64,000 bases of DNA from assembly GCA_049697115.1 (NCBI GenBank), contig JBAVVD010000048.1:18151-82150 (forward strand), given 5' to 3'. This DNA comes from Candidatus Aminicenantales bacterium (GTDB lineage Bacteria; Acidobacteriota; Aminicenantia; Aminicenantales; UBA4085). Below, piece after piece: positions 6,022-22,630 of this stretch (positions are counted from its first letter, which is position 1; the number at the start of each line of letters is the position of its first letter). The translations under genes were made by a program, and so were the position numbers. The notes under the pieces are model-generated. The model was not told where the DNA came from, searched no databases, and saw only the letters and a list, made by a program, of their open reading frames with translations.

Positions 6022-6102
6022 CGCCGGGCATAACCGGTTTTAAAATGCGGGGGCATGAAATGCCGAAGCATTTTAAAATCCGTGTTAATGCCTTTGTTAG
6101 AC
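6016..6102. other. attC-like recombination site (imperfect palindrome)
   Basis: The site reads ATCTAAC(G)...cggttttaaaatgcg...cgaagcattttaaaatccg...GTTAGAC. The R''-like 7-mer is at 6016-6022 and the R'-like GTTAGAC at 6096-6102. It overlaps the RelE stop codon. Confidence 0.5.
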
Positions 6103-6194
6103 CTGTTTTTTGCATTTTATGATACCAAGCCATGTATTAACTGGATCTATATACAGCTCATCACCAAAACCCAGTTCAGCTCTTACAAGTTGCC

Positions 6195-6644: not shown

Positions 6645-6659
6645 ATATTCTCCTTGAAG

Positions 6660-6748
6660 GTCTAACGTAAAACTAAGCCGCCCCGCCACAGACCTTTGCC
6701 AAAAACAAACCAGCTTTATTCCGGGTTGGCTTGAGTGATTCGTTAGAT
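6660..6748. other. attC-like site
   Basis: GTCTAAC (6660-6666) pairs with GTTAGAT (6742-6748). The outer stems are cTAACGtaaaACTaAGCC and GGCTtgAGTgattCGTTAG, around a variable centre. Confidence 0.5.
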
Positions 6749-6760
6749 TAGCAGTTCATT

Positions 6761-7213
6761 TTAACAGAAGCCATTTTTTTCTAAGAATTTGATGCCCTTT
6801 TTCAGAGCTTCTTTATATGCATTGCTTTTCCACCAGTTACCATGGCTGTGAATAAGACCGTTTCTCTTTGCATTGAAGTTATTTAGATTACTGTAATCGT
6901 CATAGTTTATTGCGCCCAAGAAATGAGACCATTTGATAAGTTTGTAAGTAGACGTATTAGCTTTGTCTTTTCCATTTTTGCTATTCTCAATTTTGGCCCT
7001 GACCTCAGTTTCTTTTTGATCTTTAAAGGTCTTAACTATTTTATCCCACAATATAGTTTCGATAGCGAGTTGAGCATGCACGAATGCTTCAATAGTTTGA
7101 TTTTTTTTCATCATGTCTCTTATAGCATTGGCGCATTTGTATCTAACGACTTGCAATCTCTCGCCGCCCTCAGCTAAATCAGAAACAGCCATGTCTCTTT
7201 TCTTCTTGTTCAT
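6761..7213 (-). CDS. hypothetical protein with RNxxxH (HEPN-like Rx4-6H) motif
   Basis: The 150-aa, AT-rich product contains the C-terminal motif AKRNGLIHSHG. It is bounded by attC-like sites on both sides. Confidence 0.45.
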   Translation of the reverse strand: MNKKKRDMAVSDLAEGGERLQVVRYKCANAIRDMMKKNQTIEAFVHAQLAIETILWDKIVKTFKDQKETEVRAKIENSKNGKDKANTSTYKLIKWSHFLGAINYDDYSNLNNFNAKRNGLIHSHGNWWKSNAYKEALKKGIKFLEKNGFC

Positions 7214-7225
7214 GTCATTTTTTCA

Positions 7226-7282
7226 ATCTAATGTGCTGATCAGCGGCGGCTGTAAGCCGTCCGCTGGATTAGCTTGTTGGGT
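7226..7282. other. attC-like site
   Basis: The site reads CTAATG...ctgatcagcggcggc tgtaa gccgtccgctgg...ATTAGc ttGTTGGGT. The GTTGGGT core is at 7276-7282. Its stem sequence is related to the sites at 8471 and 11457. Confidence 0.45.
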
Positions 7283-7285
7283 CTG

Positions 7286-7771
7286 TTACTCGTTGTATCC
7301 GGCCTGTTCTAACCTCCTGAGTAAAAGAGACGCGAGTGAGAGGTGATCCAAACATTGATCCGGCGAGTCGCTTATGGAGTATTCATGACCCCTCGGATTG
7401 CGAATTGCCAACATGGCACCCGCGAAAACGAACTGGAAGCCTCTCTGTTCGTCTTGTTCACTTGTCGTGATGTTTGCATTGAGCACCACGCTTGGGGACT
7501 TTCCTCCGAATGCCTGCATCATGAGCTTGAAACCTGCTTCAGTTGAGGCCACAATCTTCTGAATTAGTTTGTCCAGATACTTGAATGCTTCGAATGTTGC
7601 CTGTGAGTAGTGGCCGTTGTCGAATAGTGTTCGGACGATTTGTGGCAATGAATCATGGATATCCCTCTGCTCAAAGGGGTGTTGTATCCCGAGATCGCGC
7701 GCTTCAACTTGAGTAAAACGATATGCTTGGCGGGCAATCCGCTCAAATCGATTCAGACGTGCGTCAGCCAT
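7286..7771 (-). CDS. Abi_C / TIGR02391-like protein (HEPN-like, RNxxxH)
   Basis: The 161-aa product contains GAMLAIRNPRGHE (R-x4-H). It overlaps the upstream gene by 8 nt, so the two form a two-gene cassette. Confidence 0.55.
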   Translation of the reverse strand: MADARLNRFERIARQAYRFTQVEARDLGIQHPFEQRDIHDSLPQIVRTLFDNGHYSQATFEAFKYLDKLIQKIVASTEAGFKLMMQAFGGKSPSVVLNANITTSEQDEQRGFQFVFAGAMLAIRNPRGHEYSISDSPDQCLDHLSLASLLLRRLEQAGYNE

Positions 7772-8444
7772 TCAGGAGATTCTCTCTTATGCTTTTGAAG
7801 ATGCGATCGTAGGTCTCTTGTGTTCCCTCGGCTGGCAGATTGATCTCAATACGCACCGTTAGCCCAACGTCGCGAACCTTCAGACCTCCATTAACACCTG
7901 TCTTTGGTTCTGATTTTTCCTTTGCCTTTGTGACCTCCAGAGGAGTCGCTTTTGCCTGCTTCTTCTTTGGCTTTTTGTCGGCGTCGGTTTTGGATGTGCC
8001 TTTGGCTTCTGGTAACTCATGATGTCCTGACAGGCCGCTCAACGTTAGAAAGGTGTTCGCTTGCCGCTTGCCAACGATAGCACTTGATTGGTCGTTCTGT
8101 CGGAAGAAAGTGATGAGTTGGGATGAATTAAGACCCCAGGTCTTCTCACCGTGGAGCGCAAAGAGCTCCTTGTAGCCCGTTGTTACAAGCTGCGCAAAAG
8201 CTTTCTGGAAGTCTTTATCCTGATGCAGAGAAAATATTTTGCCTGCAGCTTCCGTTTTGCCGCCATCCTTGTCGATGAGGCCAAGGAACCGAAGTGTACT
8301 GATTATGTATGTTTCATTCTTTGGGGCGTAGCCCAACTTCTTCAACGTGTCTGCCGTTAATGATGCCGGAAATGAGCTACGGAGATGGTTTATCACCTGG
8401 ATCAAACCACCAGCGCTTGTTATGTACGGATGTTTGTCCGCCAT
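7764..8444 (-). CDS. hypothetical protein, partner of the Abi_C-like gene (Lys-rich linker; possibly DUF5343-like)
   Basis: The 226-aa product has a lysine-rich low-complexity linker (KKPKKKQAKATPLEVTKAKEK) between two globular parts. It is co-oriented with and overlaps 7286..7771. Confidence 0.45.
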   Translation of the reverse strand: MADKHPYITSAGGLIQVINHLRSSFPASLTADTLKKLGYAPKNETYIISTLRFLGLIDKDGGKTEAAGKIFSLHQDKDFQKAFAQLVTTGYKELFALHGEKTWGLNSSQLITFFRQNDQSSAIVGKRQANTFLTLSGLSGHHELPEAKGTSKTDADKKPKKKQAKATPLEVTKAKEKSEPKTGVNGGLKVRDVGLTVRIEINLPAEGTQETYDRIFKSIRENLLNG

Positions 8445-8470
8445 GTCATCTTCCTCCTTCTTTCTTTTTG

Positions 8471-8531
8471 ACCTAACGTTCCGGTTCAGCGGCAGCGCTT
8501 CCGCGCCGTCTGCTGAAACCGATTGTTAGGC
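8471..8531. other. attC-like site
   Basis: ACCTAACG (8471-8478)...ggttcagcggcagcgc ttcc gcgccgtctgctgaaacc...GTTAGGC (8525-8531), about 61 bp, the classic 59-be size. It overlaps the 3' end of the DUF4365 ORF. Confidence 0.6.
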
Positions 8532-9458: not shown

Positions 9459-9610
9459 GCCTAACTATTAATATACCGCATGCTGTATTTGATACAGATC
9501 TCCCTTCATTGACGTCGTATATTATGTGATTCCATCAAATATCCCCGCAAAGTTGCAGTATTATTTTAAAATTAACCATATTAAATTGCAAGTTGTATAT
9601 TTTACGACGG
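9459..9610 (+). repeat. attI-like/platform repeat copy A (about 150 bp, AT-rich)
   Basis: Copy A begins at the core GCCTAAC (9459-9465). It is about 80% identical to the reverse complement of 10435-10592 (copy B) and shares its first 50 bp with copy C at 19286. It contains a TTGCAA-N17-TAAAAT promoter on the minus strand. Confidence 0.7.
9563..9591 (-). promoter_or_regulatory. outward-facing sigma-70-like promoter inside repeat A (candidate cassette promoter)
   Basis: On the minus strand: TTGCAA (9586-9591), a 17-nt spacer, then TAAAAT (9563-9568). It reads toward the DUF4365 cassette run. Confidence 0.45.
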
Positions 9611-9682
9611 AATTATCCAGCCCGAAAGAGTTGCTTGAACAATAATCAAAAAAACCTCATCGAGTTTGAAGATTTTATAAAG

Positions 9683-10341
9683 CAGTTCCGATTGTCTTAA
9701 CTCGTGAAGAGGTTCATCGCCTCTTTTCCTTTCTTGAGGGGCCCTATCTTCTCATGTCTCAATTGCTCTATGGAAGCGGCCTCCATCTTCTGGAATGCAT
9801 ACAATTGAGAGTCAAGGACATCGATTTTGCCAATAATTTGCTAGTCATTCGGGCGGGAAAAGGAGAGAAAGACAGAACCACCATACTGGCGGACAAGATC
9901 AAGGAGTCTCTGAAAGCCCATTTGAAGAGAATCAAGAAGTTGCATGACCAGGATTTGGCAAAAGGATACAGGGGGACAACGCTTCCTGATGCCCTGGAGA
10001 AAAAATATCCGAATGCCAATAAAGAATGGGCCTGGCAATGGGTGTTCCCCTCGAAAAGCCTGGTGGTCCATCCTAGGAGCGGCAGGGTCATGCGTCATCA
10101 TATCCAACCCAGTACGCTTCAAAGGATGATAAAAGACGCTCTAAGAAAATCGAAGATTTCAAAACCTGCAAGCTGTCACACGCTGCGGCACAGTTTCGCT
10201 ACGCATCTTCTGGAAGCAGGGCATAATATCCGAACGATCCAGGAACTCATGGGCCATAAGAACGTGAATACCACGATGATATACACTCATGTGGCTCGAA
10301 AGAGTTATTCGGACATTTCTAGCCCTTTGGACAAACTGTAA
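9683..10341 (+). pseudogene. intI: integron integrase IntI remnant (5'-truncated; catalytic box I Arg replaced by His)
   Basis: The frame is open from the TGA at 9680. PIVLTREEVHRLFLFLEGPYLLMSQLLYGSGLHLLE...ALEKKYPNANKEWAWQWVFPS...HTLRHSFATHLLEAGHNIRTIQELMGHKNVNTTMIYTHV aligns with IntI1 from about residue 115 to the C-terminus, including the IntI-specific insertion. The first 100 or so codons are missing, and the upstream homologous sequence is interrupted by stops. GMRISE is replaced by GLHLLE. Confidence 0.8.
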
Positions 10342-10434
10342 GAAATGCCGAAAAGACTAAGCGGTTGTTTCCGAGATATCTCACGCTCCGTAAAACTTCC
10401 GCGGCTATCTGGTAAATAATCGCTCCTCTGATGG

Positions 10435-10592
10435 ATATTTGAGTCGTCAAATATACGACTTGCAATTTAATATGGATATTTTTAAGATAAGACTGCAATT
10501 TTGATGGGATATTTGATGGAATCACATAATATGCGACGTTAAAAAAGGAAGATTTGCATCAAATACAGCATGCTGTATAGTAATAGTTATGC
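10435..10592 (-). repeat. attI-like/platform repeat copy B (inverted copy of A)
   Basis: The reverse complement aligns with copy A over about 150 bp. Its outer end is GTTATGC (10586-10592), 42 nt before the ATG at 10634. Confidence 0.7.
10460..10488 (+). promoter_or_regulatory. outward-facing sigma-70-like promoter inside repeat B
   Basis: TTGCAA (10460-10465), a 17-nt spacer, then TAAGAT (10483-10488). It reads toward the right-hand cassette run. Confidence 0.45.
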
Positions 10593-11456: not shown

Positions 11457-11515
11457 GCATAACAAGTCATTGCAGCGGACTGCGTAAACGCCGCCGCTGA
11501 ATTCTATCGTTAGAC
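11457..11515. other. attC-like site
   Basis: GCATAAC...cattgcagcggactgcgtaaacgccgccgctg...GTTAGAC (11509-11515). The stem is related to the sites at 7226 and 8471. Confidence 0.5.
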
Positions 11516-11546
11516 TGCAAGAGACATAGAAAGATAGGAGGCAAGG

Positions 11547-11927
11547 ATGTCCCACGAATTCACAGAACGCGGACAAGCGGAAAATGTGCATGGCGAGGTT
11601 GTTAAAGCCACACCCGGAGCGATCGATCCTTCGGAGAAAGACTGGCCCGAGGTACTTGACCGCAGTGTCAATCGGGTCGCGGACGTTATTCAGGAACGGC
11701 AGCAGCTCCAGCATGAGCTAAGTAAGGCCACGATCTCGATCGACAAAGGCCTCCTGCTCGTAATTGGACTTGCCCTACTTGCAACCCTTTTGTTCACGTT
11801 CTATATGCTTGCCCGAGACAAGCTCCAGGCGGTCACTCAGGTACTCTATCCAATCCTCACCGCCTTGCTGGGTTTCATGAGTGGCTACTTTGCTGGGTCA
11901 GGTAGAAAGGGTGCTCGTCAGAAGTAG
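11547..11927 (+). CDS. hypothetical membrane protein
   Basis: The 126-aa product has a C-terminal pair of TM helices. It is followed at once by an attC-like site. Confidence 0.4.
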   Translation: MSHEFTERGQAENVHGEVVKATPGAIDPSEKDWPEVLDRSVNRVADVIQERQQLQHELSKATISIDKGLLLVIGLALLATLLFTFYMLARDKLQAVTQVLYPILTALLGFMSGYFAGSGRKGARQK

Positions 11928-11936
11928 GAGTGAGCA

Positions 11937-12032
11937 GTCTAACCCGGCGCTGCAGCTGGCGGATCACCGTCACGGCCTTTGCAGCCGCAAGGCCCGTGCC
12001 AGGACCCGCAGCTGAGCGCCAGTCCGTTAGGC
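11937..12032. other. attC-like site
   Basis: GTCTAAC (11937-11943)...ccggcgctgcagctggcgg...ccgcagctgagcgccag...CGTTAGGC (12026-12032), about 96 bp. Confidence 0.6.
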
Positions 12033-12073
12033 AGAATGGCCTTGGTGAACCTGCCTCACAGGAGGAGTGCAAG

Positions 12074-12940
12074 ATGCGCCGTTTCCTATTGGCTTGCATG
12101 CTTATCGTTTCAGTCATGCCGAGCTCTGCACCGACGCAGCCAGCTCAATCAGTGCCCATCGAGTTCCTTAGCGGGGGAGAATACGTTAGAGGCCAGTTCT
12201 TCGGGAGCGCAGATGGAGATCCGATAGCAACGCTGGTCCTCCTCCCCGGCTGGCCAGGAGACCCACGCGACGTACTCGGATTGGGGGCCCTTCTTGCGCG
12301 GCTGAACGTGAACGTGCTCATGTTCAACCCGCGCGGTCTGTATCAGAGCGAGGGCACATCGACTTTTGCACACACCCTCGAGGACATCGCCGCATCCCTG
12401 AAGTGGCTCAGACAGGCGGATACGCGTCAGCGGTTCAGGGTCGACATCGACCGTATTGCGTTGGGGGGACACAGCTATGGTGGGGGCATGACCATGGCAT
12501 ATGCGGCTGCCGATCCCGGGATCCGGCGAGTGATCTCGATTGCCGGCAACGACCACGGGGACTTCATCCGTAGGATCCAGAGTGATCTTCAGTTCGCGGA
12601 GGACATGCGGCAGATGTTGGCGAGTACCCGTGCACCAAATGGTCCAGCCAGGTTTGACCTGGAAACTGGACTAAAGGACCTTGCTGATCATCAAGATATA
12701 TATGGCCTCAGAGAGAATGCTCCGCGTCTTGCCGACCGCTCCATTCTGCTTGTTGGCGGTTGGGAAGATGTGCAGGTCACAGTGGAGGACGTGCTTCTTC
12801 CGTTGTATCGGTCTCTGAAGGCTGCCGGAGCGTCCGACGTTACATTCCTCACGTACCATGACGATCATGGGTTTGGGACAGTGCGGCAGCAATTGGCCGC
12901 AGATATCCAGCAATGGCTAGTTCGCCACATGCCCAAGTAG
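12074..12940 (+). CDS. secreted alpha/beta hydrolase (dienelactone-hydrolase-like)
   Basis: The product has a signal peptide (MRRFLLACMLIVSVMPSSAP) and a GGHSYGG nucleophile elbow. The gene is about 62% GC. The ORF listed from 11930 spans the attC-like site, and the RBS-supported start is 12074 (AGGAGG). Confidence 0.65.
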   Translation: MRRFLLACMLIVSVMPSSAPTQPAQSVPIEFLSGGEYVRGQFFGSADGDPIATLVLLPGWPGDPRDVLGLGALLARLNVNVLMFNPRGLYQSEGTSTFAHTLEDIAASLKWLRQADTRQRFRVDIDRIALGGHSYGGGMTMAYAAADPGIRRVISIAGNDHGDFIRRIQSDLQFAEDMRQMLASTRAPNGPARFDLETGLKDLADHQDIYGLRENAPRLADRSILLVGGWEDVQVTVEDVLLPLYRSLKAAGASDVTFLTYHDDHGFGTVRQQLAADIQQWLVRHMPK

Positions 12941-12947
12941 AGCCTCT

Positions 12948-13020
12948 GTCTAACAAGCGCCTGCATCAGTCAGCCGCTTCGCGGTTGCTGGTGAGACGCA
13001 GCGTCAGCTGCGCCAAAACA
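12948..13020. other. attC-like site (weaker)
   Basis: GTCTAAC (12948-12954) is followed by a GC-rich imperfect palindrome, but only a degenerate right end (cGTTTTAGc). Confidence 0.3.
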
Positions 13021-13082
13021 ACGTTTTAGCATCTTGACGTTATAACATTGTGATGCTATGCTTACTTGTGGAGGTGATTTTC

Positions 13083-13316
13083 ATGAGCGAAACTACAAAG
13101 CGTTCAACTATATACTTCAAGCCGGAGCTTCATCGAGCTCTACGAATCAAGGCTATTGATACCCAGCGTAGCTTGTCTGATCTCGTAAATGACGCGGTTC
13201 AAATGGCTCTTCGCGAGGATGAAGAGGACCTCTCTGCATTTGATGAGCGGGCGAGCGAGCCTACGTTGACATATGAAGAACTGCTCAGGGATCTGAAAGC
13301 TCATGGGAAAATATAG
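13083..13316 (+). CDS. antitoxin of a RelE/ParE module (RHH/Phd-like)
   Basis: MSETTKRSTIYFKPELHRALRIKAIDTQRSLSDLVNDAVQMALRE is antitoxin-like. It overlaps the toxin gene by 14 nt. Confidence 0.6.
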   Translation: MSETTKRSTIYFKPELHRALRIKAIDTQRSLSDLVNDAVQMALREDEEDLSAFDERASEPTLTYEELLRDLKAHGKI

Positions 13317-13566
13317 ATTAGTCTTCAAGAAATCGGTCGCGAAGGATCTGCGTGATCTCCCGAAGAAAGATGTCGCTCGCATCCTGAAATATTTCAATGC
13401 GTTATCAGAGAATCCGCGCGCTCCTGGTTGCGAAAAGTTATCTAGCCAGGAAAGATATCGAGTTCGGCGGGGTGTGTACCGTATTATTTATGAAATCAAG
13501 GATGATGTATTGACAGTAATCGTGATAAAAGTCGGCCACAGGCGTGATGTCTATAAGGGCAGCTGA
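13303..13566 (+). CDS. RelE/ParE-family type II toxin
   Basis: The 87-aa product reads LVFKKSVAKDLRDLPKK...GVYRIIYEIKDDVLTVIVIKVGHRRDVY. It is a paralogue of the toxin at 5761..6021. Confidence 0.8.
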   Translation: MGKYRLVFKKSVAKDLRDLPKKDVARILKYFNALSENPRAPGCEKLSSQERYRVRRGVYRIIYEIKDDVLTVIVIKVGHRRDVYKGS

Positions 13567-13612
13567 CTGCAGCGTGCAGCAGCCGAGAGGCACTTCCTCT
13601 TTCAGCGCTTTG

Positions 13613-14023
13613 TTAGCCTCGCGCATTATCCTCATCAATTATTTTGCAGCCTTCGGTCCAATCCGCGTAAACCTGCCAATGCTTGATCTTATCGTTCTCC
13701 ACTATAGCCTTCCAGGCGGCTGGCATTTCAATCCTGTTCTCAGGGACAAGCCCGCGCTTACCGTTGTAAGTCCCGGAAGCGGACCCGAAGACTGCGACGA
13801 GGCCTCTATCTTGGAGCATACTCTGGACTTCGATTCTGTAGTCGGGAAACATGCGGAAGTATTGGTTCCATCCTTTTGTCATGTTTTCGCGGCCCGACTC
13901 GACTTTGCCACTAGAGTCCACAAAGTTGTGGTCTTCCGCCATCAAGCTGGAGAGTTTAGAAATATCACCTTTATTGATAGCGGTAATAAAGGCCTTTACG
14001 ACACCGATCTCGCTTGAATCCAT
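13613..14023 (-). CDS. NTF2/SnoaL-like domain protein
   Basis: The 136-aa product is flanked by the complementary cores GTTAGCC (13612-13618) and GGCTAAC (14040-14046). Confidence 0.45.
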   Translation of the reverse strand: MDSSEIGVVKAFITAINKGDISKLSSLMAEDHNFVDSSGKVESGRENMTKGWNQYFRMFPDYRIEVQSMLQDRGLVAVFGSASGTYNGKRGLVPENRIEMPAAWKAIVENDKIKHWQVYADWTEGCKIIDEDNARG

Positions 14024-14213
14024 CCTGTTTTCTCCCTTGGGCTAACAATTACCATATAATATGCAGTGAAACAATGGACTATCAGGAGATTCTTTTCGAA
14101 ATCAATATCTTTGACTCAGAGCTTAACACATTCCATGAATCGGAAAAGTCCTTCCTCAAAGGAGATTTCGCGCAGGCCGCATCTCCCTGCTTTTAGATTT
14201 TCGCTAAAGCTTT

Positions 14214-14609
14214 TTATTGAGAAGAAGACTCAAATGCTCCATGCGATTTGAAATCAACATTGACATTTTTTTGGTCGAATGAATACCATGCCCCTGTAGC
14301 CGCATCAACAATGATAGGAATTAATCCGGCTAAGACATCCAAAATAACCCATCCCACTCCCACGTGATTATTTAAGTTTATCGTTTTTGTTTGGCCGCCA
14401 TACTTAAACTCGATGACGTATGTTTTTTTTGTTATCAATTTGAAATTTATGGGAGCCCTTCCCATCATTTTGCCATCAACCCATATCTCCGCGCCACTCG
14501 GGTTAGAGCCGAAATTGACTTCTTCCGATGTTCCCTTAAACAGAGTGGCGCAGTTTGTCAGATAAAAACAGAGACAAAATACAAGTAACGCTGAAATTTT
14601 AGCTTTCAC
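14214..14609 (-). CDS. PEGA-domain lipoprotein
   Basis: The product has a signal peptide and lipobox (LTNC) and the PEGA-like stretch SNPSGAEIWVDGKMMGRAP. Confidence 0.45.
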   Translation of the reverse strand: MKAKISALLVFCLCFYLTNCATLFKGTSEEVNFGSNPSGAEIWVDGKMMGRAPINFKLITKKTYVIEFKYGGQTKTINLNNHVGVGWVILDVLAGLIPIIVDAATGAWYSFDQKNVNVDFKSHGAFESSSQ

Positions 14610-14847
14610 CTTTAATTCCTCCTTAAGGAATAAATGATAATTTACGAAATAATTAATGTCAACCGAAGATTATTTATATAGGAGTTCCTCTAAAATAGGG
14701 CTTAAAATTCGCTAGGTCTTTTACATTATTGAATTTATAGGACCTACGATATGCCATGGCATTATGCACGGTACTATATCTGATAATACAGGTAGTAAGA
14801 TTGCCGCAGTTACACCTTGCTCCTGTGTCATGGATATTGTTTGAATG

Positions 14848-14904
14848 GGCTAACAAGGCGCATGCACCGGACGCCGATGGCGCCGGTGATACTTAACATT
14901 AGCC
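14848..14904. other. attC-like site with no adjacent ORF
   Basis: GGCTAAC...caccggacgcc gatg gcgccggtg...ATTAGCC. The 10-bp stem is nearly perfect. Confidence 0.5.
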
Positions 14905-15033: not shown

Positions 15034-15236
15034 TTCACAGGCGAAACCAGTTTTATGTTCTGCTGCCTCTTTCAAGATTTTGAAGCCGCCGCGTAGCACG
15101 ACAACTGCGATGACAAAACCAATGACAAGATCGGGATAGCGGCTGCCCAGAGCCCAAACCAGGACGCCGGACAAAATAACGCCAACATTGGCAATAAGGC
15201 CTAACGCCTGAAATAACCCGCACGGTTTTACCGTGT
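15034..15236 (-). pseudogene. cation diffusion facilitator (CzcD-like) transporter gene fragment
   Basis: The minus-strand translation ALGLIANVGVILSGVLVWALGSRYPDLVIGFVIAVVVLRGGFKILKEAAEH resembles the last TM helices and start of the C-terminal domain of CDF transporters. There is no start codon and the fragment runs into an attC-like site. Confidence 0.35.
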
Positions 15237-15258
15237 CGGATTGATGGACTTGTTAGCC
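15199..15258. other. attC-like site
   Basis: GCCTAACG...cacggttttaccgtg...GTTAGCC (15252-15258). Confidence 0.45.
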
Positions 15259-15262
15259 ACTG

Positions 15263-15970
15263 TTATTCCTCAATGGACCCTCCTTTTTCCCGCAAGTGTC
15301 TACGGAACGTATAGGTTGGATCCTTGGATCGCTTCTTTAAGTATTCGTCAAACCGGAGTTGGTCACGAAGCTTTCTTCCAGCCCGTATTTCCTCCGCCTG
15401 TCGTCGCTCCGTTTGCCAAATGATGCGTGCAGTAGAGATAAGTTCATCGGCATGTTGAATTGGGGCGAAAAGAACTCCGTCACCGTCAGCAAAAACAATG
15501 TCCTCCTTTGATACATGGAAATCGCCAAAAAGAGCGGTCGTGAGTGCATCGGCATCGGGTGAATCAAGCCGCTGGGGACCTGTCGGGCAAGTGCCGTAAC
15601 TGAAGATTGGGAAACCAATATGGTTAAGCTCCGCCGTATCTCTGTGACAGCCCCAGACAACGATTCCTGCCAATCCACTCGCTTGAGCCTCCAATGCCGT
15701 TAAATCTCCAATACACCCTTCATCCATTCTTCCTCTATTATCTATGACAAGAATGTCTCCTTGTTGTGCGGTCCCCATGGCTTCAAGAAAGATATCCACG
15801 CTGCCGTAGTGTTTCACGGGCAAGGCTCTGCCAGCAATACGGCTCCCCGCAGGTAATGTACGAATGCCTGGAGGCGCGACGCGAGTGGGCAAGCCCAAAC
15901 GCAAGCAAGCATCCGCTATGAGCGGGGTTGAGAGATCTGATAAAGCACTATTCAAGTCTTGGTTTTTCAT
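15263..15970 (-). CDS. RraA-family protein (RNase E regulator / HMG-CHA aldolase-like)
   Basis: The 235-aa product contains STPLIADACLRLG...GDILVIDNRG...VVWGCHRDT...GFPIFSYGTCP, typical RraA/MenG family blocks. Confidence 0.7.
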   Translation of the reverse strand: MKNQDLNSALSDLSTPLIADACLRLGLPTRVAPPGIRTLPAGSRIAGRALPVKHYGSVDIFLEAMGTAQQGDILVIDNRGRMDEGCIGDLTALEAQASGLAGIVVWGCHRDTAELNHIGFPIFSYGTCPTGPQRLDSPDADALTTALFGDFHVSKEDIVFADGDGVLFAPIQHADELISTARIIWQTERRQAEEIRAGRKLRDQLRFDEYLKKRSKDPTYTFRRHLREKGGSIEE

Positions 15971-16062
15971 TCAAAGCTCCGTTGTGACCAACTGCAAGGC
16001 TCAGGGGCGCAAGGGCTTACTCGCATCCGCATACCAAAAACGCACAGAAACAGATGCAGTGT

Positions 16063-16120
16063 GTCTAACATTCATGTTTTCAAACATCGCCTTTGCATCC
16101 ACCGTAAACGATTGTTAGGC
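16063..16120. other. attC-like site
   Basis: GTCTAAC (16063-16069)...ATGTTTTCAAACAT...GTTAGGC (16114-16120), 58 bp. Confidence 0.55.
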
Positions 16121-16121
16121 A

Positions 16122-17342
16122 TTATTTTGATTTAACATTCGTCGCTATTTCAATTTCTGAAAATTCTGTCGCCTGTTTTATTAAGTCAATATCTGGTTGT
16201 TCCATAAGATATTTGTCAAAGAAAGCCAAGACGAGCACATTCATGATCTCGACGGTTTTTTTCCCATTGATAGATCCTAGAAGAAATTTGACTGCCGAAA
16301 TAGGATAGACGGAATAGTCAGATAAATTGTAGTGATCTGAATCTTTTACACTTAAGGAGTAACAATCCATCTTGGATTTACTTGTGAATATTTTACCGTA
16401 CCCTAAAAACCGTTTACTATTCAGAAACATGGTAGGTGTTTGAATTTCCCTCTCCAATGATGAACCGATTAATCCGCCATCCATATTGACGCATGCCTTG
16501 ATTCTTTTATCTGAAAGACAAATTTCACTTGATGCAATCCCCCCCATCGACATTCCGAATACCCCAATTCTATCAAGGTTCAATTTTTCTTTAAATATTT
16601 TGTTTTCATTGTTCATACCCTCTAATTGATCCATGAAAAATGAAATATCTTCTGCCCAATACCTTGGACTTTCTGTTAGAGCAGTGGGCAAAACATTGTT
16701 TATATCCACAAAAACTTGTCTACGCTCCTCGTCATTGCCGGCTTGATACATTTTTCGCATCAATTCCATGGCTTTGGGGTTTGTCATCTCTTGCATAATT
16801 TTCTGAAACCTAAGACTTTTCATGTCAATATAGATGAGCCGCCCATCTGGAAATGATGAAAATTTACATTCATAATGATGAGAAATACTAAAAACGATAT
16901 AGCCATGGCTTGCCAATTCTTCCATCAAGATTGAATTTTGTGAATAATGCTCACCCCACCCGTGAGAAAATATCAATATTGGGTATTTGTTTTCTTTGGA
17001 TGACACAGGTACATCACGACTTGAGTTTGTTTTCAAGTCCTTGTATATCTCTGGAAATTGAAGATACCTCATGACAAATTCTGCTTCGGCCTTCAGAAAA
17101 TAGGGTTCAGGATTGGATTTATGATCTGAGGGATACCATGCCTTCACTGTAATTTCTCTGTGACTTTCCTGATTGTTGTCAAATAATTCTTTTCGATTAT
17201 CATCAATAAAACTGAGGTAAGTTATTCCGACAAAATGTTTCCCCGTAGGTTTTGGTAATGTGTTGGTTTGTATTTGACCGGAATTACTTTGACCGCAATT
17301 AAATATCAGGCTGCAAAGAAATAAGATAAACATACGTCTCAT
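16122..17342 (-). CDS. alpha/beta-hydrolase lipoprotein (PAF-acetylhydrolase-like)
   Basis: The product has a lipobox (LFLCSLIFNCG), an oxyanion-hole-like FSHGWG and a GMSMGG nucleophile elbow. The gene is AT-rich. Confidence 0.5.
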   Translation of the reverse strand: MRRMFILFLCSLIFNCGQSNSGQIQTNTLPKPTGKHFVGITYLSFIDDNRKELFDNNQESHREITVKAWYPSDHKSNPEPYFLKAEAEFVMRYLQFPEIYKDLKTNSSRDVPVSSKENKYPILIFSHGWGEHYSQNSILMEELASHGYIVFSISHHYECKFSSFPDGRLIYIDMKSLRFQKIMQEMTNPKAMELMRKMYQAGNDEERRQVFVDINNVLPTALTESPRYWAEDISFFMDQLEGMNNENKIFKEKLNLDRIGVFGMSMGGIASSEICLSDKRIKACVNMDGGLIGSSLEREIQTPTMFLNSKRFLGYGKIFTSKSKMDCYSLSVKDSDHYNLSDYSVYPISAVKFLLGSINGKKTVEIMNVLVLAFFDKYLMEQPDIDLIKQATEFSEIEIATNVKSK

Positions 17343-17426
17343 TTTGTTTTTCCTTTCAAATTAAAACCTGACGATTTAAGCCATCGGGGGAAATAAGCCG
17401 TCCGTTGGAGTGGTTTGTGTTTCGCT

Positions 17427-17789
17427 CTATATTTCTTCAAATTCCTTTAGTGTCTTTTTAGTTATTATATCACCTGTATGTTTTATTTTCGATGATTCTA
17501 AAACGACCATCCACGTTTCCTCATCAGCGAATGGCCTATGCTTTTTCCCTTTTGGGATGACCGCCAATTCTCCTGGATTTAATTCAATGATTCCTTCTTC
17601 TAATTCAATTCTGAATTTACCTTTTATTACATAAAACAATTCATCTTCATCTTTATGGTCATGCCAATCCAATTCACCGTTGACTTTAACAATTTTCACA
17701 TCATAGTTATCAACCCGACTAATGACTTTCGGGCTCCATAATTCATCAAACTTTCTGAATTTATCCTCGAGGTTTATTACATTTATCAT
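17427..17789 (-). CDS. cupin-domain protein
   Basis: The 120-aa product contains HDHKDEDELFYVIKGKFRIELEEGIIELNPGELAVIPKGKKHR, a cupin_2 pattern. Confidence 0.65.
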   Translation of the reverse strand: MINVINLEDKFRKFDELWSPKVISRVDNYDVKIVKVNGELDWHDHKDEDELFYVIKGKFRIELEEGIIELNPGELAVIPKGKKHRPFADEETWMVVLESSKIKHTGDIITKKTLKEFEEI

Positions 17790-17811
17790 AGTATACCTTT
17801 CATCTTATTGC

Positions 17812-17901
17812 ACATAACGGCGAAGCTCACCGGCGGCGAAACGTAGCGGAGAGAACCGAAAAGCGAAGCTTTTTGGCGTCCGATTGACCGATTTGTTAGC
17901 G
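17812..17901. other. attC-like site
   Basis: ACATAAC (17812-17818)...GC-rich imperfect palindrome...GTTAGCG (17895-17901). Confidence 0.4.
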
Positions 17902-18342
17902 CTGCTCAATAATTTTCCTTTTGACTTCTTGAACTTCGCCGTAGACTTGAAGTGTCCTCATTACTAGAGGTTTTGTCCTGGTCTTCAAGTCCGAAAGGCG
18001 AGTATACTCGTTTTTTATATATTCTTTGTCAGACTGCTCTTCAAAGGTTATGATGTAAGCCTGATGCACTAGCTTGTTTCTCTCTTTTTGGAGAGGTCGA
18101 AGCTTTTTTACTAAGTCATGATCGGCATTAATCTTTACGAATCGATCCAAGAGCTTTCCAAGTGGTTCATTTTCGACATCCTTCCAACCATATTTGAACG
18201 GCACGACTCCCTTGACTTTAGTAGCGATGATTAAATAGGTCTCCGCTATATACAGCTTTAATCCTAACTCAATGAATTGAAAGTCAAGAAGTATTTTCTG
18301 AACTAAATCCAAATATTCAGTGATTGATCTATCTTTGACCAT
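17896..18342 (-). CDS. hypothetical protein with RNxxxH (HEPN-like) motif
   Basis: The 148-aa, AT-rich product contains QKERNKLVHQAY. It is bounded by attC-like sites. Confidence 0.4.
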   Translation of the reverse strand: MVKDRSITEYLDLVQKILLDFQFIELGLKLYIAETYLIIATKVKGVVPFKYGWKDVENEPLGKLLDRFVKINADHDLVKKLRPLQKERNKLVHQAYIITFEEQSDKEYIKNEYTRLSDLKTRTKPLVMRTLQVYGEVQEVKRKIIEQR

Positions 18343-18365
18343 AATAAGGCACCCACTTCTTAGGT

Positions 18366-18424
18366 GCTAACGTGACAAGTGAGGCATGCATGTTACAGCA
18401 TCGCCTCGACTTGGTTTGTTAGCG
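18366..18424. other. attC-like site
   Basis: GCTAACG (18366-18372)...catgcatg...GTTAGCG (18418-18424). Confidence 0.5.
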
Positions 18425-19273
18425 GATTATGTTGTAATGTCTTCGCCACTGCCTGCGTGGCTCCAGTCGCACCCCTTCAATATACCGATTGAGGCGGTAC
18501 ATATCTCGCCCAGTTCTTTCAACAAGGGTTGGGCGTGCGACTCTATCTCGGATTATGTTGTAGCAACGCGCATAAAATTCCTTGGTCTCGTCTGGCCAAT
18601 TGTTGCAATATCCATTTTCCACTTCGATGAAACGTCTTATACAGTAAATCACAAGATCTGAGAACTGTATCATCGGGTTCCTGCGTAAGTCAATGGCATA
18701 GCTGAACTCGACAATCCACTTCACACGGTGGGTGGCAGCGCCACCGAAGCGGCGCTCCCGCATAATTCGCCCAATGTCATTGTGAAACTGCTCTTTTCTA
18801 TCCAGTATAATCATTCCTCGGGCTGACTGTCCGAGTCGCACTTTGACAAACCAGTTGATATACGTCACCAGATAGTCAAATCCAACAAGGTACGGTCGTT
18901 TCGGGTTATACGTCAATTTCATGCCAAGCGGTATATCTCTCATTCTTCGTTTGTCTATCGCTAAGTAGTGTACGTGGTGGGCTCGGTTAGGGAGTAGACC
19001 CAACACGTCCATGCAGAGTTGGTTTCTTCGGTCTCTGCATTCTCCTTGAAATGGACCGTTACCCTGTGGGCTCAGGAGTTCATCTGCGTGAAGTTCGAAG
19101 TCCGCCGGGAGATTGCCACCGAAGAAACGCTCGAGGCAGTGTTTCAATGCTTCGTGTGTTGCATTCCATCCTTCATCCCGAACGCTGACCCCGCCGATAA
19201 CCATAACTGGCTGATCGGGGTCATCAAGATTAGAACCCGTATCACCCGATTCGTCGATATAGTAGAAGTGCAT
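18419..19273 (-). CDS. DUF3800-family protein
   Basis: The N-terminal MHFYYIDESGDTGS matches the DUF3800 YIDESG signature. The 284-aa product is the first gene read outward from repeat copy C. Confidence 0.55.
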   Translation of the reverse strand: MHFYYIDESGDTGSNLDDPDQPVMVIGGVSVRDEGWNATHEALKHCLERFFGGNLPADFELHADELLSPQGNGPFQGECRDRRNQLCMDVLGLLPNRAHHVHYLAIDKRRMRDIPLGMKLTYNPKRPYLVGFDYLVTYINWFVKVRLGQSARGMIILDRKEQFHNDIGRIMRERRFGGAATHRVKWIVEFSYAIDLRRNPMIQFSDLVIYCIRRFIEVENGYCNNWPDETKEFYARCYNIIRDRVARPTLVERTGRDMYRLNRYIEGVRLEPRRQWRRHYNIIR

Positions 19274-19285: not shown

Positions 19286-19450
19286 CGCTAACTATTAATA
19301 TATTACATGCAGTAAAATGTGAAAAAAACTATTGAAAAAACGTCTTTTCATTGAGGAAGCCATCGATCAACACCTTAAGAATGCTGTAATGTTGTAATAT
19401 ATCTCATGTTATATTACAAGCTGTATATCTAATTTTTCCAATATTCGGCA
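19286..19450 (+). repeat. attI-like/platform repeat copy C (diverged)
   Basis: CGCTAACtattaatatattacatgcagta matches the first 35 bp of copy A, with patchy similarity after that. It abuts the start of the DUF3800 gene with an AGGAAG RBS. Confidence 0.5.
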
Positions 19451-19546
19451 AATCCTATGAATCATAAAGAGGGTGCGGATAAATATTTTGAGATGTATAA
19501 TATAATAATTGTTAGCGCCTATTAAACTTAAACGAAAGAATTAATA

Positions 19547-19717
19547 ATGGCTAAACAAAGAAAACTTTTTTTAACCAATTTGGCTGTAGGAATACTTGGT
19601 ATTTTCGTTGGAATTGAAAATTTGTTTCGATGGTTCTATGATGGATACTATATTCGTAATCTAATTATCGGCTTAATTTGTACTGCGGAATGCGATCAAA
19701 AAAGGTTGGGTTTTTGA
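19547..19717 (+). CDS. small hypothetical membrane protein (56 aa)
   Basis: MAKQRKLFLTNLAVGILGIFVGIENLFRWFYDGYYIRNLIIGLICTAECDQKRLGF has one predicted TM helix. It is below the ORF-track size cutoff, so the call is speculative. Confidence 0.2.
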   Translation: MAKQRKLFLTNLAVGILGIFVGIENLFRWFYDGYYIRNLIIGLICTAECDQKRLGF

Positions 19718-19798
19718 GTGTGCAGCCTTCGGGCCCTGATACCTGATACCCGACCATTAAATCTCTGAAAAATTCAGCTTCAAAGGAGTTTTAAGAAG

Positions 19799-20935
19799 AT
19801 GAAAAGATCAATCCTCGTCGCAACGACTTCCTTACTTTTGATCGGCCATTTGTTTGGAATGACTGATGAAAACACAGCCGGGAAAATTCCTTTTAAAAAA
19901 ATCGCTTATTTTATCTTGGTCACAACAAAAATCAACGATTCCAAGAATGATTACAACTTTATCATTGATACGGGAGGCGTTGCTCTGATTGATAAAGCGG
20001 TCGTTCAAGAACTCGGTCTCAAACAACGCGGACCGATGGCAAAAATAACAACTCTCAATTTGTCTGGATATCAAATAGAAAATGTCTTTTGCTTTACAAC
20101 CTTTGATTTTAACATTTTTAGACAATTAGGGACTCCAATACATGGGATTATCGGGTCAAATCTTATGGAAAGGTTTAAGGTGACGATTGACTTCCAATCA
20201 TGCTCTATCATTTTTTCAACGGATACCACATCCTTGACACCGCCTGATAATGGTATCTTTTTTACCTTTCGGAATCATCCGGTCAATAACGCTCCAATAA
20301 TCAAATTTAAAGTCAATCAGAAAATCATTGAAGGAATGATCGATACGGGTCAGCCTTACCCTGTGGTTTTACCGCTCAAAGATTTTGAACAATATGAAAA
20401 GTCCAACAATCCCGTTTCAATTCGATCGAAAGGTCTAATGATAAAATGGCCACAGACGACTCCGCAATATAATTATTTGACAAGATTAAAATCATGTGAA
20501 TTTGGAAGTTTAAAAATTACGGATGCCCTGGGCATCTTTGGAGAACTGCCTCCCCTGCTCTCAATGCCATTAATTGGTACAGATTTATTATCTCAATTTA
20601 AAATAATTATTAACTATCCCAAGGATGAAATGCTGTTCATTCCAAATCCAGATATTCATTTTGAGAACAATCAATTTTCTCTTGGTTTAAATCTAAATCT
20701 ATCAGAAAAAGATGAAATTTGGGTAGAGGGTGTATGGGAAAATTCTCCTGCGGATAAAGCCAATATACAAGTTGGAGATCAAGTTATTGCATTCAATTCG
20801 AAAAAAGTCACTCCTGAAAATTTGATCGAACTGATGGAAATGATGAAAGATGACCATATAGAATCGATACATTTAGAAATAAAAAATCAAAACGGAATAA
20901 GAAAATTGAAATTAAATAAAACAATGCTGTTTTAA
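19799..20935 (+). CDS. secreted pepsin-like (clan AA) aspartic protease with C-terminal PDZ domain
   Basis: The product has a signal peptide and two DTG motifs (IIDTGGVALI and MIDTGQPYPV), indicating a single-chain pseudo-dimer. The C-terminal PDZ-like stretch reads GVWENSPADKANIQVGDQVIAFN. The gene is AT-rich. Confidence 0.55.
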   Translation: MKRSILVATTSLLLIGHLFGMTDENTAGKIPFKKIAYFILVTTKINDSKNDYNFIIDTGGVALIDKAVVQELGLKQRGPMAKITTLNLSGYQIENVFCFTTFDFNIFRQLGTPIHGIIGSNLMERFKVTIDFQSCSIIFSTDTTSLTPPDNGIFFTFRNHPVNNAPIIKFKVNQKIIEGMIDTGQPYPVVLPLKDFEQYEKSNNPVSIRSKGLMIKWPQTTPQYNYLTRLKSCEFGSLKITDALGIFGELPPLLSMPLIGTDLLSQFKIIINYPKDEMLFIPNPDIHFENNQFSLGLNLNLSEKDEIWVEGVWENSPADKANIQVGDQVIAFNSKKVTPENLIELMEMMKDDHIESIHLEIKNQNGIRKLKLNKTMLF

Positions 20936-21029
20936 CGATTTGCGAAAGGAATGAATATTATACATTCATGTATTTAATATTTTGTGTAATCATTGCATGA
21001 ACACGGATTGAAATGCGTTCCATCAATTC

Positions 21030-21096
21030 CACGTTTATATGTTTTGTGGAATCACATCAATCGGGACGTAACTCTCGGCATTTCAACCGGTTATGC
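21030..21096 (-). repeat. attI-like/platform repeat copy D (partial, B orientation)
   Basis: atatgttttgtggaatcacatcaatcgggacgt matches copy B (atatttgatggaatcacataatatgcgacgt). It ends at GTTATGC (21090-21096), the same core as copy B, 40 nt before the VOC gene. Confidence 0.45.
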
Positions 21097-21135
21097 AAAA
21101 CGTAAGGCGGCACGAAGAGGGAAGAGAAAGGAACA

Positions 21136-21453
21136 ATGAAAAGATATCATCACATCGGAATTCCAACCGAAACAGCCCAGGCTGGGGAGACATACCTTGC
21201 GGAGTACAAGGCGCACTGCACGGATCACAAGCGCAATCCCTTCGGAATTCAGTGGATGCGGTTTGAGACTGACAGTCCGCTTCCGGCGCTCGTAAAAACG
21301 CTTTCGCATGTCGCATTCGAGGTGGATGATCTCGAACGCGCCCTCGCAGGACACGAGGTCATCATTGAGCCCAACAGTCCATCCGCGGGTGTTGTCGTGG
21401 CGTTCATTGTGTGCGACGGGGCGCCGGTGGAGTTCCTGCAATTCTCGAAGTAG
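21136..21453 (+). CDS. VOC / glyoxalase-bleomycin-resistance family protein
   Basis: The 105-aa product has the small betaabbb-module pattern (HIGIPT...HVAFEVDDLERA...VEFLQF). The gene is GC-rich. Confidence 0.6.
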   Translation: MKRYHHIGIPTETAQAGETYLAEYKAHCTDHKRNPFGIQWMRFETDSPLPALVKTLSHVAFEVDDLERALAGHEVIIEPNSPSAGVVVAFIVCDGAPVEFLQFSK

Positions 21454-21586
21454 TCATGTATCGCGGCGATCGGACTAACAACCGGCACGGCCCGACGGCC
21501 GGTGCGGTCATGCGCCTTTCATGTGCATGGTGAGCGCCCGTCCTGTCCGCCCGTCAGCCGGGACTTTATGCCACAGGAGAAATCGG

Positions 21587-22099
21587 ATGACAATTCGCAA
21601 GGAATCATCAAAAGACATTGATGCCATTCACCGCCTCAATGAGCAGGCATTCGGACAATCGCAGGAAGCCGACATTGTGGACAAACTCCGCAATCATTGC
21701 CGGGAAATTCTCTCGCTTGTTGCGCTTCAGGAAGACAAAATAGTCGGACATATACTTTTCAGTCCGGCCGCTATTGAAGGGAATCACGGCATCATCAAAG
21801 GCATGGGCCTGGCTCCTATGGCCGTCATTCCGGAGCATCAACGTCAAGGGATCGGCTCCGCACTGGTCAGAGAGGGAATTCAAATTTTAAAAGAATCGGA
21901 GTGTGCATTCATAATCGTGCTTGGCCATCCGGAATATTACCCTCGCTTTGGATTCAAACCGGCATCCAGATATGGAATCAAAAGTCAGTGGGACGGTGTG
22001 CCCGATGATGTGTTTATGATATCGTGGTTAAATGAATCAGCGGCCAAAGGTGTCTCGGGCGTCGCCAAATATAGAGAGGAATTTAATGACACAATGTAA
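21587..22099 (+). CDS. GNAT-family N-acetyltransferase
   Basis: The acetyl-CoA-binding motif HQRQGIGSALV is present. The listed ORF starts at 21521, and an internal Met at 21587 is more likely the start. Confidence 0.7.
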   Translation: MTIRKESSKDIDAIHRLNEQAFGQSQEADIVDKLRNHCREILSLVALQEDKIVGHILFSPAAIEGNHGIIKGMGLAPMAVIPEHQRQGIGSALVREGIQILKESECAFIIVLGHPEYYPRFGFKPASRYGIKSQWDGVPDDVFMISWLNESAAKGVSGVAKYREEFNDTM

Positions 22100-22147
22100 A
22101 TGCACGACGAATCGCTCAAGAGAGATGCGCCAAAAAGCCGCGGCGAT

Positions 22148-22630
22148 CTAAGAAAACCGCCTTTCGTGCTTCAGTAGCCACTCTTTTTTGCCCAGTCCGC
22201 TCCCATAGCCCACCAGCGACCCGTCGGATCCGATGACCCGATGGCAGGGGACGATGATCCCGATGGGATTGACATGGTTGGCGCCTCCCACCGCCCGCGC
22301 GGCTTTGGGTCTGCCGACGGCGCGGGCAATTTCACCATAGGAAGCCGTCCGGCCATAAGGGATTTTCATCAATTCTTTCCAGACCTTTTTCTGAAAATCC
22401 GTCCCTTCCAGAAGGAGCTTCACAGTGAATTTTTTCCTTTTCCCCTTGAAGTATTCATCGAGCTGCCGGATGCATTCCTTCAAGACGGGAGGCAGGCCTG
22501 TTTGAGACCGGCCGGCCTGAGGTTTTTTTTGTGTGAAACCCACAGAGAGGATTGCCCTTTCTGTGCCCTCAATTTTGAGAACTCCGACTTTCGACATGTA
22601 GAAAGCTTTGTAATTTTTTTCCATAATCAC
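22148..22630 (-). CDS. ogt: methylated-DNA--protein-cysteine methyltransferase
   Basis: The active-site motif IVPCHRVI and the HTH region YGEIARAVGRPKAARAVG are both present. Confidence 0.8.
   Translation of the reverse strand: MIMEKNYKAFYMSKVGVLKIEGTERAILSVGFTQKKPQAGRSQTGLPPVLKECIRQLDEYFKGKRKKFTVKLLLEGTDFQKKVWKELMKIPYGRTASYGEIARAVGRPKAARAVGGANHVNPIGIIVPCHRVIGSDGSLVGYGSGLGKKEWLLKHERRFS

Follow-up and report, generated by a model that had tools for sequence, protein, structure and literature searches.

Inverted repeats that flank an integron integrase gene in a member of the Aminicenantales seemed to recur around the gene of a secreted aspartic protease, which raises the question of whether the protease belongs to an integron platform of its own. 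The locus comprises positions 19286-21096 of a 64,000-nucleotide (nt) stretch of contig JBAVVD010000048.1 from a Candidatus Aminicenantales bacterium; this whole stretch is referred to as the window. In a first-pass annotation, the repeats A and B flanked the integrase gene (intI), and a second pair of the same family, C (19286-19450) and D (21030-21096), enclosed the protease gene, possibly as cargo that had replaced a second intI. The present analysis leads to a different picture, in which a chromosomal integron island of "two-armed" platforms probably has its right-hand end, now decayed, in this region. C heads a cassette array that reads leftward, the best candidate for its inverted partner is a stub of only 20 nt, the protease gene lies outside the remnant thus defined, and D resembles a cassette recombination site (attC) rather than an arm.

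Arm C and the leftward cassette array

The island occupies ~17 kb of the window (~5.4-22.1 kb) and has housekeeping genes on both sides, with enolase and methylmalonyl-CoA mutase on the left (1.3-4.2 kb) and ogt (minus strand, 22148-22630), comEC, lpxK, and RNase PH on the right (from 22.1 kb). Between these core flanks, the G+C content varies from 0.34 to 0.58, and the cargo genes belong to typical cassette types (DUF4365, DUF3800, cupin, GNAT, ParE/RHH, SnoaL). The attC sites were located with a covariance model (R1) built from 12 hand-oriented local sites of 59-72 nt, which combines a paired R box with an unpaired spacer of 6 nt and an L box containing a bulged base and shows compensatory changes in 10 of the 15 pairs. 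We know of no attC or attI family in Rfam. Matches to the model lie on the minus strand at 6017-8531, on the plus strand at 11457-14904 (11457, 12948, and 14848), and again on the minus strand at 15199-18424, and exactly such an alternation would be produced by three tandem divergent platforms. Because these matches fill the stretch of ~6-18.5 kb, outside which the model gives only three matches (each with E>=4), the region 19286-21096 is placed at the right-hand end of the island.

The reference for all repeats is platform 1 (9459-10592, plus strand), where arm A (9459-9619) and arm B (10432-10592) form an inverted repeat of 161 nt (86% complementary) on either side of a 5'-truncated integron integrase gene (9685-10341). 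The junction of arm A, G|TTAGGC, fits the R'' box GCCTAAC of the attC at 8471-8531, and that of arm B, G|TTATGC, fits the R'' box GCATAAC of the attC at 11457-11515.

Arm C (19286-19450, minus strand) is read leftward and ends in ...TATATTAATAG|TTAGCG, with its core at 19286-19292. The likeness to arm A, which had been noted only for the outer end, extends over the full length of the arm. A and C are identical at 23 of the first 27 nt. When eight arms, taken from the window and from three related contigs, were combined into an nhmmer profile, C aligned with it over its whole length (profile positions 3-163, 32.9 bits, E=9e-9). Apart from A and B themselves, no sequence of the window matches the A/B consensus better than C, and with 68 of 139 conserved positions its similarity exceeds that of an AT-rich background (40 +/- 5.5). 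In blastn searches, C is 69% identical to the arms of the related contigs L032 and L031 (E=4.5e-4 and 0.006; alignments of 144-148 nt). The identity of C to the other arms is in every case 55-61%, which is the same distance as that of the arm in contig L035.

The outer end of C shows the conserved sequence ...TATTAATAG|TT and is followed by a matching R'' box: the junction G|TTAGCG is the exact complement of the R'' box CGCTAAC in the attC (18365-18424, minus strand; attC model 40.4 bits, E=1.7e-7) that follows the DUF3800 gene (18419-19273, minus strand; PF12686, 9.5e-14). This gene is the first cassette of the leftward array, which continues via minus-strand attC sites at 17815, 17366, 16063, and 15199 and holds at least five cassettes. 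In view of the profile score, the end-to-end alignment, and the position of its outer end at a true cassette junction, we regard C as a genuine full-length arm of a diverged subtype that heads the third array of the island. No intI was detected within 19286-21096 by tblastn with a full-length IntI.

A candidate partner of arm C

The outer 20 nt of C (CGCTAACTATTAATATATTA) recur in inverted orientation at 19498-19517 (TAATATAATAATTGTTAGCG), where 18 of the 20 positions (90%) are complementary. This copy, C' (plus strand; core GTTAGCG at 19511-19517), is the inverted partner of 19286-19305, with 192 nt between the two, and would be all that is left of the right arm of platform 3, namely its outer end of ~20 nt. 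By our own estimate, the probability that a specified 20-mer finds such a match within 1 kb by chance is ~1e-4; by eye, C' also resembles the arm end in L035 (CTAACAATTACTATAT). For the right arm of this platform, C' is the best candidate, in which case the arm has been cut to a stub. With C' as the partner of C, platform 3 comprises only 232 nt (19286-19517), and the notion of a second platform that encloses the protease gene had to be given up.

Several points weigh against this assignment. C' is AT-rich and only 20 nt long, and on its own it reaches no better than E=3.7 with a profile of the outer arm (GCTAACAATTATTATAT). C has no inverted partner of similar length on the far side of an intI, and an intact C-type platform, with C-type arms around intI, was not found; C and C' are called the remnant of a platform by analogy with platform 1 and with the contigs L031 and L035. 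To the right of C', moreover, the cassette bookkeeping fails, as no attC with the R'' box CGCTAAC follows the junction G|TTAGCG.

The protease unit

The protease unit (19751-20992, plus strand) has decayed ends and carries a gene (19799-20935) for a protein of 378 amino acids (aa), which consists of a signal-peptide-like N-terminus, two lobes with a DTG motif each, and a C-terminal PDZ domain. The description of the protein as a double-DTG pseudo-dimer with a PDZ domain was borne out. Both D57-T58-G59 and D182-T183-G184 are invariant in 32 homologues, among which the motifs that follow each DTG, GIIG and LIGxD (LIGTD), are invariant or nearly so. Pfam models for PDZ_6 (1.1e-7), PDZ (3.6e-7), Asp_protease_2, and RVP match the protein, and an AlphaFold2 model (pLDDT 92.4, pTM 0.86) retrieves a putative endopeptidase of Bacteroides fragilis (9iy9; 4e-13), members of the pepsin family (~1e-9), and a tethered dimer of HIV-1 protease in Foldseek searches. 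Since a BLAST search for an internal duplication aligns only the motif after each DTG (E=7e-4), the two-lobed structure is deduced from the motifs and the predicted fold. Motifs and predicted fold identify the protein as an aspartic protease of two lobes in one chain, with a predicted active site and an appended PDZ domain; its N-terminus suggests that it is secreted.

The gene has ~194 homologues of uniform length (44-85% identity), and all that are named belong to Aminicenantes or unclassified Acidobacteriota. DNA homology with 25 related loci is limited to 19751-20992, and none of these 25 loci contains an arm or an intI. In L002, the closest relative with flanks (84% nucleotide identity), the protease unit starts with G|TTATAC and closes with the R'' box GTATAAC, followed by a palindrome with a canonical bulge and the junction G|TTAGCC of the next cassette, which in turn closes on the R'' box GGCTAAC of a 56-bit attC. 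In L015, G|TTATAC again opens the unit, immediately behind an attC that the model scores, and attC sites are located near the protease gene also in L008, L013, and L021. Because homology is confined to the unit, its boundaries in L002 and its start in L015 are those of a cassette, and intI is absent from all 25 loci, the protease gene is best read as captured cargo, a free-standing cassette in relatives that plays no role in recombination. The suggestion that it is cargo is thereby upheld, and the suggestion that it replaced an integrase is not. A discordant point is that the boxes in the window are mutated relative to the core sites in L002 (CG|ACCATTA at 19751 and GTGTAAT at 20984). Vertical inheritance as a core gene with conserved synteny was rejected, as the context of the gene differs in every contig.

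Some relatives show further peculiarities. The closest nucleotide relatives of the gene (88-89% identity), in L023 (5928-6626) and L025 (5928-6479), have the equivalent of window position 19862 joined to that of 20333, with loss of the first lobe, and are likely pseudogenes. An ogt-like gene lies near the protease gene also in L004, in a different arrangement. Directly upstream of the protease cassette in L002 (3-452), an open reading frame (ORF) resembles, by eye, the N-terminus of a transposase of the IS110 family of insertion sequences; IS1111-type members of this family target attC sites.

Hairpin D

Element D, which extends from 20995 to 21096 on the plus strand, is an imperfect end-to-end hairpin of ~102 nt bounded by GCAT(G)AAC and GTTATGC. 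Its fold is more stable than that of shuffled sequences (z=-2.4 for the plus strand and -3.0 for the minus strand; 1 of 200 shuffles as good). As in an attC, inverted core boxes close a hairpin within the range of 55-140 nt, and the bulged bases lie on the 5' arm of the plus strand, as expected for a plus-oriented site. Other features of an attC are missing, since the bulges are located 1 and 5 nt after AAC and not at ~9 nt, a central unpaired spacer and the L-box bulge are absent, and the attC model finds no match at E<=10. The second R of the GTTATGC core is a T in D, as it is in B. Taken together, D is an attC-like hairpin and not an arm; if the protease cassette has an attC-type site on its 3' side, D is the best candidate.

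The kinship of D with B that the first-pass annotation had reported is real in part. The two elements have in common the 11-mer TGGAATCACAT (21047-21057 in D), which lies within a block of ~30 nt (22 of 31 positions in an ungapped alignment), and the 7-mer GTTATGC. Besides B and D, only A (as the reverse complement) contains the 11-mer anywhere in the window. What could not be sustained is the status of D as an arm. The eight-arm profile has no match to D at E<=10, and a ten-arm profile reaches E=2.2 (3.5 bits) over profile positions 50-85 only, in the correct orientation. The outer 30 nt, which are the best conserved part of the arm family (TATTAATATAC..., with the stretch TATTAATA), are absent from D, and no R'' box that matches its GTTATGC core is present downstream (GGACTAAC at ~21473).

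It would nevertheless be conceivable that C and D are the arms of one platform in which the protease unit and an adjacent ORF of 56 codons replaced the integrase, with D as a heavily eroded right arm. The restriction of the 11-mer to A, B, and D, the alignment of the ~30-nt block at z ~5 relative to shuffles, the identical 7-mer that faces an outward gene, and the correct orientation of the weak profile match are in agreement with such a pairing, but D fails the arm profile and lacks precisely those 30 nt that abut the crossover in every arm. Its block is 26 nt nearer to the core than in B (43 vs. 69 nt, counted from the start of the 11-mer), and the alignment of C with D falls below the shuffle mean (z=-0.7). 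The block of D belongs to the A/B type, from which C has departed at exactly this place, so that D is a poor partner for C, which already has an inverted partner at 19498-19517. With the protease found elsewhere as a free-standing cassette that lacks arms and intI, a platform bounded by C and D, like that bounded by A and B, is very unlikely.

The interpretation of D as an attC-type site has its own difficulties. The R'' box of D (GCATGAAC) does not fit the start of the protease unit, and the joint presence of the 11-mer and a core of the same orientation in B and D has a local chance probability of ~0.01 (own estimate), so that D possibly contains a scrap of an A/B-type arm. The attC model detects neither D nor the intergenic spacer at 21466-21562, and the model is weak on long sites. 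A direct repeat, ATRTTTTGTGKAATCA, is present twice at a distance of 62 nt (20977-20992 and 21039-21054); its first copy corresponds to the R'' region of the protease cassette in L002, and its second copy holds the 11-mer in common with B. Part of D may have arisen by local duplication.

Genes between the stub and the chromosomal flank

The 56-codon ORF next to C' (called at 19547-19717) belongs to a 3'-truncated gene copy (19526-19683, plus strand) for a small protein with two transmembrane segments, whose homologues comprise 70-80 aa. Two homologues are 72-73% identical; DNA homology ends at 19683, beyond which the reading frame differs from theirs. In L116, the spacer after the homologue of this gene ends in GCGTTAGGC, and because the attC model leaves that spacer unscored, the L116 gene is not claimed as a cassette. 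To the right of D, two small genes follow on the plus strand (21136-22099), an ORF of 105 aa (21136-21453) and a gene for a GNAT acetyltransferase that ends at 22099, and the core genes come next. The outward orientation of the genes that flank C and D was described correctly (DUF3800 on the minus strand, the 105-aa ORF on the plus strand); the label "VOC" for the latter is unverified, as no Pfam or NCBIfam model matches it at the thresholds used. The G+C content of the four small genes to the right of C' ranges from 0.32 to 0.56.

The attC covariance model finds no model-grade site between 19517 and 22148. Its weakness on long sites is evident elsewhere in the window, as it assigns 15.3 and 9.9 bits to two attC sites of ~87 nt and misses a 96-nt site at 11937-12032. 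The intergenic fold in 21136-22099 is non-significant (z=-0.8). Since the small ORF is truncated and model-grade attC sites are absent from 19517-22148, the rightward array is considered decayed, and the stretch to the right of C' reads as a gene fragment, the protease cassette, hairpin D, and two small genes, followed by the chromosome.

The same absence of attC matches could also mean that the island ends at C', with an empty right attI, that the 56-codon ORF, the protease gene, the 105-aa ORF, and the GNAT gene are ordinary chromosomal neighbors, and that D is an unrelated hairpin or terminator. The protease gene is indeed lineage-wide, and most contigs, including the complete genome CP070825, lack an adjoining attC. 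Of 14 relatives compared, 13 show a lower G+C content in the gene than in its flanks, which makes low G+C a trait of the gene as such. Such an end of the island is nonetheless unlikely in the face of the complete protease cassette in L002 and the TTATAC cassette start that is found also in L015. The spread in G+C over the four small genes, the truncation of the small ORF, and the end-to-end hairpin of D, with its complementary core-like boxes and a fold better than that of 199 of 200 shuffles, also speak against it.

Two-armed platforms in the window and in related contigs

Platform 3 can be read only against the background of its better preserved counterparts. As far as can be judged from the sequences, the intI of this lineage of Aminicenantes sits between two mirror-image arms of ~160 nt, each with a cassette array that reads outward. 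In L030 (4269-5993), a full-length IntI of 375 aa is encoded between arms of 157 nt that are 90% complementary. The first platform in L031 (7020-8735) has arms of 142 nt that lie 1432 nt apart, which is the spacing of a full-length gene, although the called ORF encodes only 183 aa. A second platform on the same contig (15124-16617), 6.4 kb from the first, has unrelated inverted arms of 184 nt (79% complementary) around the gene of a 329-aa IntI that is 45% identical to that of L030, indicating that the two-armed layout is not bound to one family of arm sequences. Tandem platforms on a single contig thus occur in L031 as well. L032 (1001-2130) and L033 share the same truncated IntI and the same arm spacing of 810 nt, and L035 has a diverged arm (7753-7914) beside a truncated IntI of 72% identity. 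Because right arms are more alike across contigs (92-95% identity) than left and right arms within one contig (78-86%), the doubling of the arms and the layout itself are ancestral to these lineages.

Conservation of the arms ends at ...AATAG|TT (...TATATTAATAG|TT), beyond which every arm continues with a different set of four bases. The strands of the attC sites diverge from both arms not only in the window but also in L031, L032, and L035; arrays to the left lie on the minus strand and those to the right on the plus strand, which argues that both arms act as outward attI-type sites. By its sequence context, each arm behaves as an attI site, since it ends at a G|TT crossover and heads its own array that reads away from the integrase. 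The arms probably also carry an outward promoter; the sequence TTGCAA-N17-TAAAAT/TAAGAT, which is conserved in A and B, is a candidate Pc only, and scans for intrinsic promoters and terminators yielded counts no higher than those of shuffled sequence. Short perfect palindromes lie close to the outer ends of the arms (ATACAGCATGCTGTAT in B, 10563-10578; CTGTATTTGATACAG in A, 9483-9497), and the motif ATATTTGAYR is present both ways round in the arms; both are candidate protein-binding sites.

Inverted repeats that flank intI were found in none of 66 IntI loci of other phyla with usable flanks, and all four controls were positive. In the literature, no description was found of integrons with two attI sites or of bidirectional integrons, nor of integrons in Aminicenantes, and the two-armed platform, which occurs three times in one island, seems to be undescribed. 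Two other explanations of the arms were rejected. The idea that A and B (or C and C') are the two halves of a single giant attC, whose loop would hold the integrase, is at variance with the strands of the attC sites and the bulged-base rule. Terminal inverted repeats of a transposon, or a miniature inverted-repeat transposable element, are not supported, as the arm ends are G|TT cassette junctions, target-site duplications are lacking, and a transposase is absent.

A full-length intI beside an attI is absent from all three platforms of the window. The integrase of platform 1 comprises the C-terminal two thirds of the protein (TIGR02249, 322.9 bits, profile positions 98-315 of 315), platform 2 retains 30 codons, and platform 3 none; tblastn with full-length IntI matches only 9688-10338 and 14160-14071. 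The N-terminally truncated integrase forms an intact ORF of 195 codons in the window (9754-10341), L032 (1293-1880), L033 (205-792), and L035 (8001-8588). Many contigs encode it (P0127-P0132 and P0143; 73 members in one of these clusters), and its deletion junction is identical in the window and L032. Between these two copies, the ratio of nonsynonymous to synonymous substitution rates (dN/dS) is 0.10 at a dS of 0.79, which suggests that the truncated protein is kept by selection.

Platform 2 is a remnant at 14040-14160. It consists of an arm stub, GGCTAACAATTACCATATAATATGCAGT (14040-14067; outer-arm profile E=0.033), and a fragment of intI on the minus strand (14160-14071) that corresponds to residues 186-214 of the L030 IntI (tblastn, E=6e-4). 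Its junction G|TTAGCC fits the box GGCTAAC on the minus strand (13612-18), downstream of a SnoaL gene. The remnant sits at the meeting point of oppositely oriented arrays. The earlier view of two mirror-image platforms, only one of which has an integrase, is therefore to be modified: there are several such platforms, of which one keeps an intI of any length, and their number is raised by the one at 14040-14160. Within the arrays, toxin-antitoxin-like pairs are encoded at 13083-13566 (RHH/ParE) and, as two overlapping small ORFs, at 5496-6021, where the pair runs against the orientation of its own array.

The presence of a truncated integrase under purifying selection (dN/dS 0.10), by which an integrase-related activity may persist, could also be taken to mean that C-C' is not a ruin but a compact, non-autonomous, two-faced attI element of 232 nt that is kept for the capture or expression of cassettes, with the integrase supplied in trans. 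The outer cores of C and C' are intact and perfectly complementary (CGCTAAC/GTTAGCG), and the attC sites of the leftward array are well preserved (up to 50.6 bits). Yet no second unit of an arm plus a stub was found in ~120 loci, the -10 hexamer in C's counterpart of the candidate promoter is poor (TACAAC, as read from the sequence), decay is evident on the rightward side, and the window lacks a full-length IntI, all of which makes such a function highly improbable. A more far-reaching idea, which we hold to be rather unlikely, is that these loci represent a new class of integron platform, in which an intI bracketed by mirror-image attI/promoter arms loads and expresses cassettes on both sides. 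Such platforms would multiply in tandem in one chromosome and then decay, leaving C-C' as an integrase-less mini-platform that could be served in trans, e.g., by the truncated integrase or a full-length copy elsewhere in the genome.

Proposed decay of the third platform

The reading of the region as the decayed right-hand end of the island implies the following history. C would be the left arm of a third two-armed platform, of a diverged subtype, from which a deletion removed the integrase gene and all of the right arm except its outermost ~20 nt (C'). The leftward array of C would have persisted, and the rightward array on the other side of C' would have fallen into decay. The protease gene may have arrived in this rightward array as a captured cassette whose ends have since mutated.

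The main result is thus a corrective one: there is no protease-centred second platform, the protease is not a component of the integron, and the link between the protease and recombination is removed. The interest of the locus lies in its architecture, namely two facing attI-type arms and three platforms in one island at three stages of decay, although the two-armed architecture itself belongs mainly to the observation of arms A and B. If both arms were active attI sites, one integron would have two "first positions" beside promoters, and arrays could run head-on; this would change the modeling of cassette order and expression and also the way in which tools of the IntegronFinder type delimit integrons and clusters of attC sites that lack an integron integrase (CALIN).

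Comparison with known systems

The protease resembles the two-lobed members of clan AA (pepsins of family A1, tethered retropepsin dimers, and 9iy9) in its two DTG motifs and the hydrophobic-Gly motif behind each of them, in the confident prediction of both lobes, and in Foldseek matches that include plasmepsins and renin (~1e-9). It differs from pepsins in that its lobes are of retropepsin size, its Pfam matches are to Asp_protease_2 and RVP and not to the pepsin family, and TM-scores are ~0.45. The C-terminal PDZ domain sets it apart from all these comparators, as does its occurrence, since the family is known only from Aminicenantes metagenomes.

An attC site is an imperfect palindrome of 57-141 nt with the boxes R'', L'', L', and R'. 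Hairpin D agrees with this scheme in its length of ~102 nt, its complementary end boxes, its end-to-end fold, and the strand that carries its bulges, but departs from it in the lack of an unpaired central spacer and of the canonical L-box bulge 8-9 nt after AAC, and it is not scored by the attC model.

Sedentary chromosomal integrons, which have been described for Vibrio and Xanthomonas and are detected with IntegronFinder, consist of intI, attI, Pc, and an array of attC cassettes. The island of the window shares with them an integron-type tyrosine recombinase (TIGR02249) and typical cassettes (DUF3800, cupin, GNAT, and toxin-antitoxin pairs). Likewise, G|TTRRRY marks the boundaries of its cassettes, the start of a cassette is complementary to the R'' box of its own attC, and the attC sites show the pairing of the R box, the unpaired spacer, and the bulged base in the L box. 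By contrast, intI is flanked here by two mirror-image attI-type arms of ~160 nt, each with an outward array, and three such platforms lie in tandem in one island, the third of them devoid of intI.

In the categories reportedly introduced by Cury et al. in 2016, a CALIN is a cluster of attC sites that lacks an integron integrase, and an In0 is a platform without cassettes. Array 3 together with C resembles a CALIN in that it is a cassette cluster without an adjacent integrase, presumably after the loss of intI. Unlike a CALIN, which consists of attC sites only, and unlike an In0, which has an intI, array 3 keeps an attI-type arm and the stub of a facing arm, and the remnant of platform 3 would also show in concrete terms how a complete integron can turn into a CALIN.

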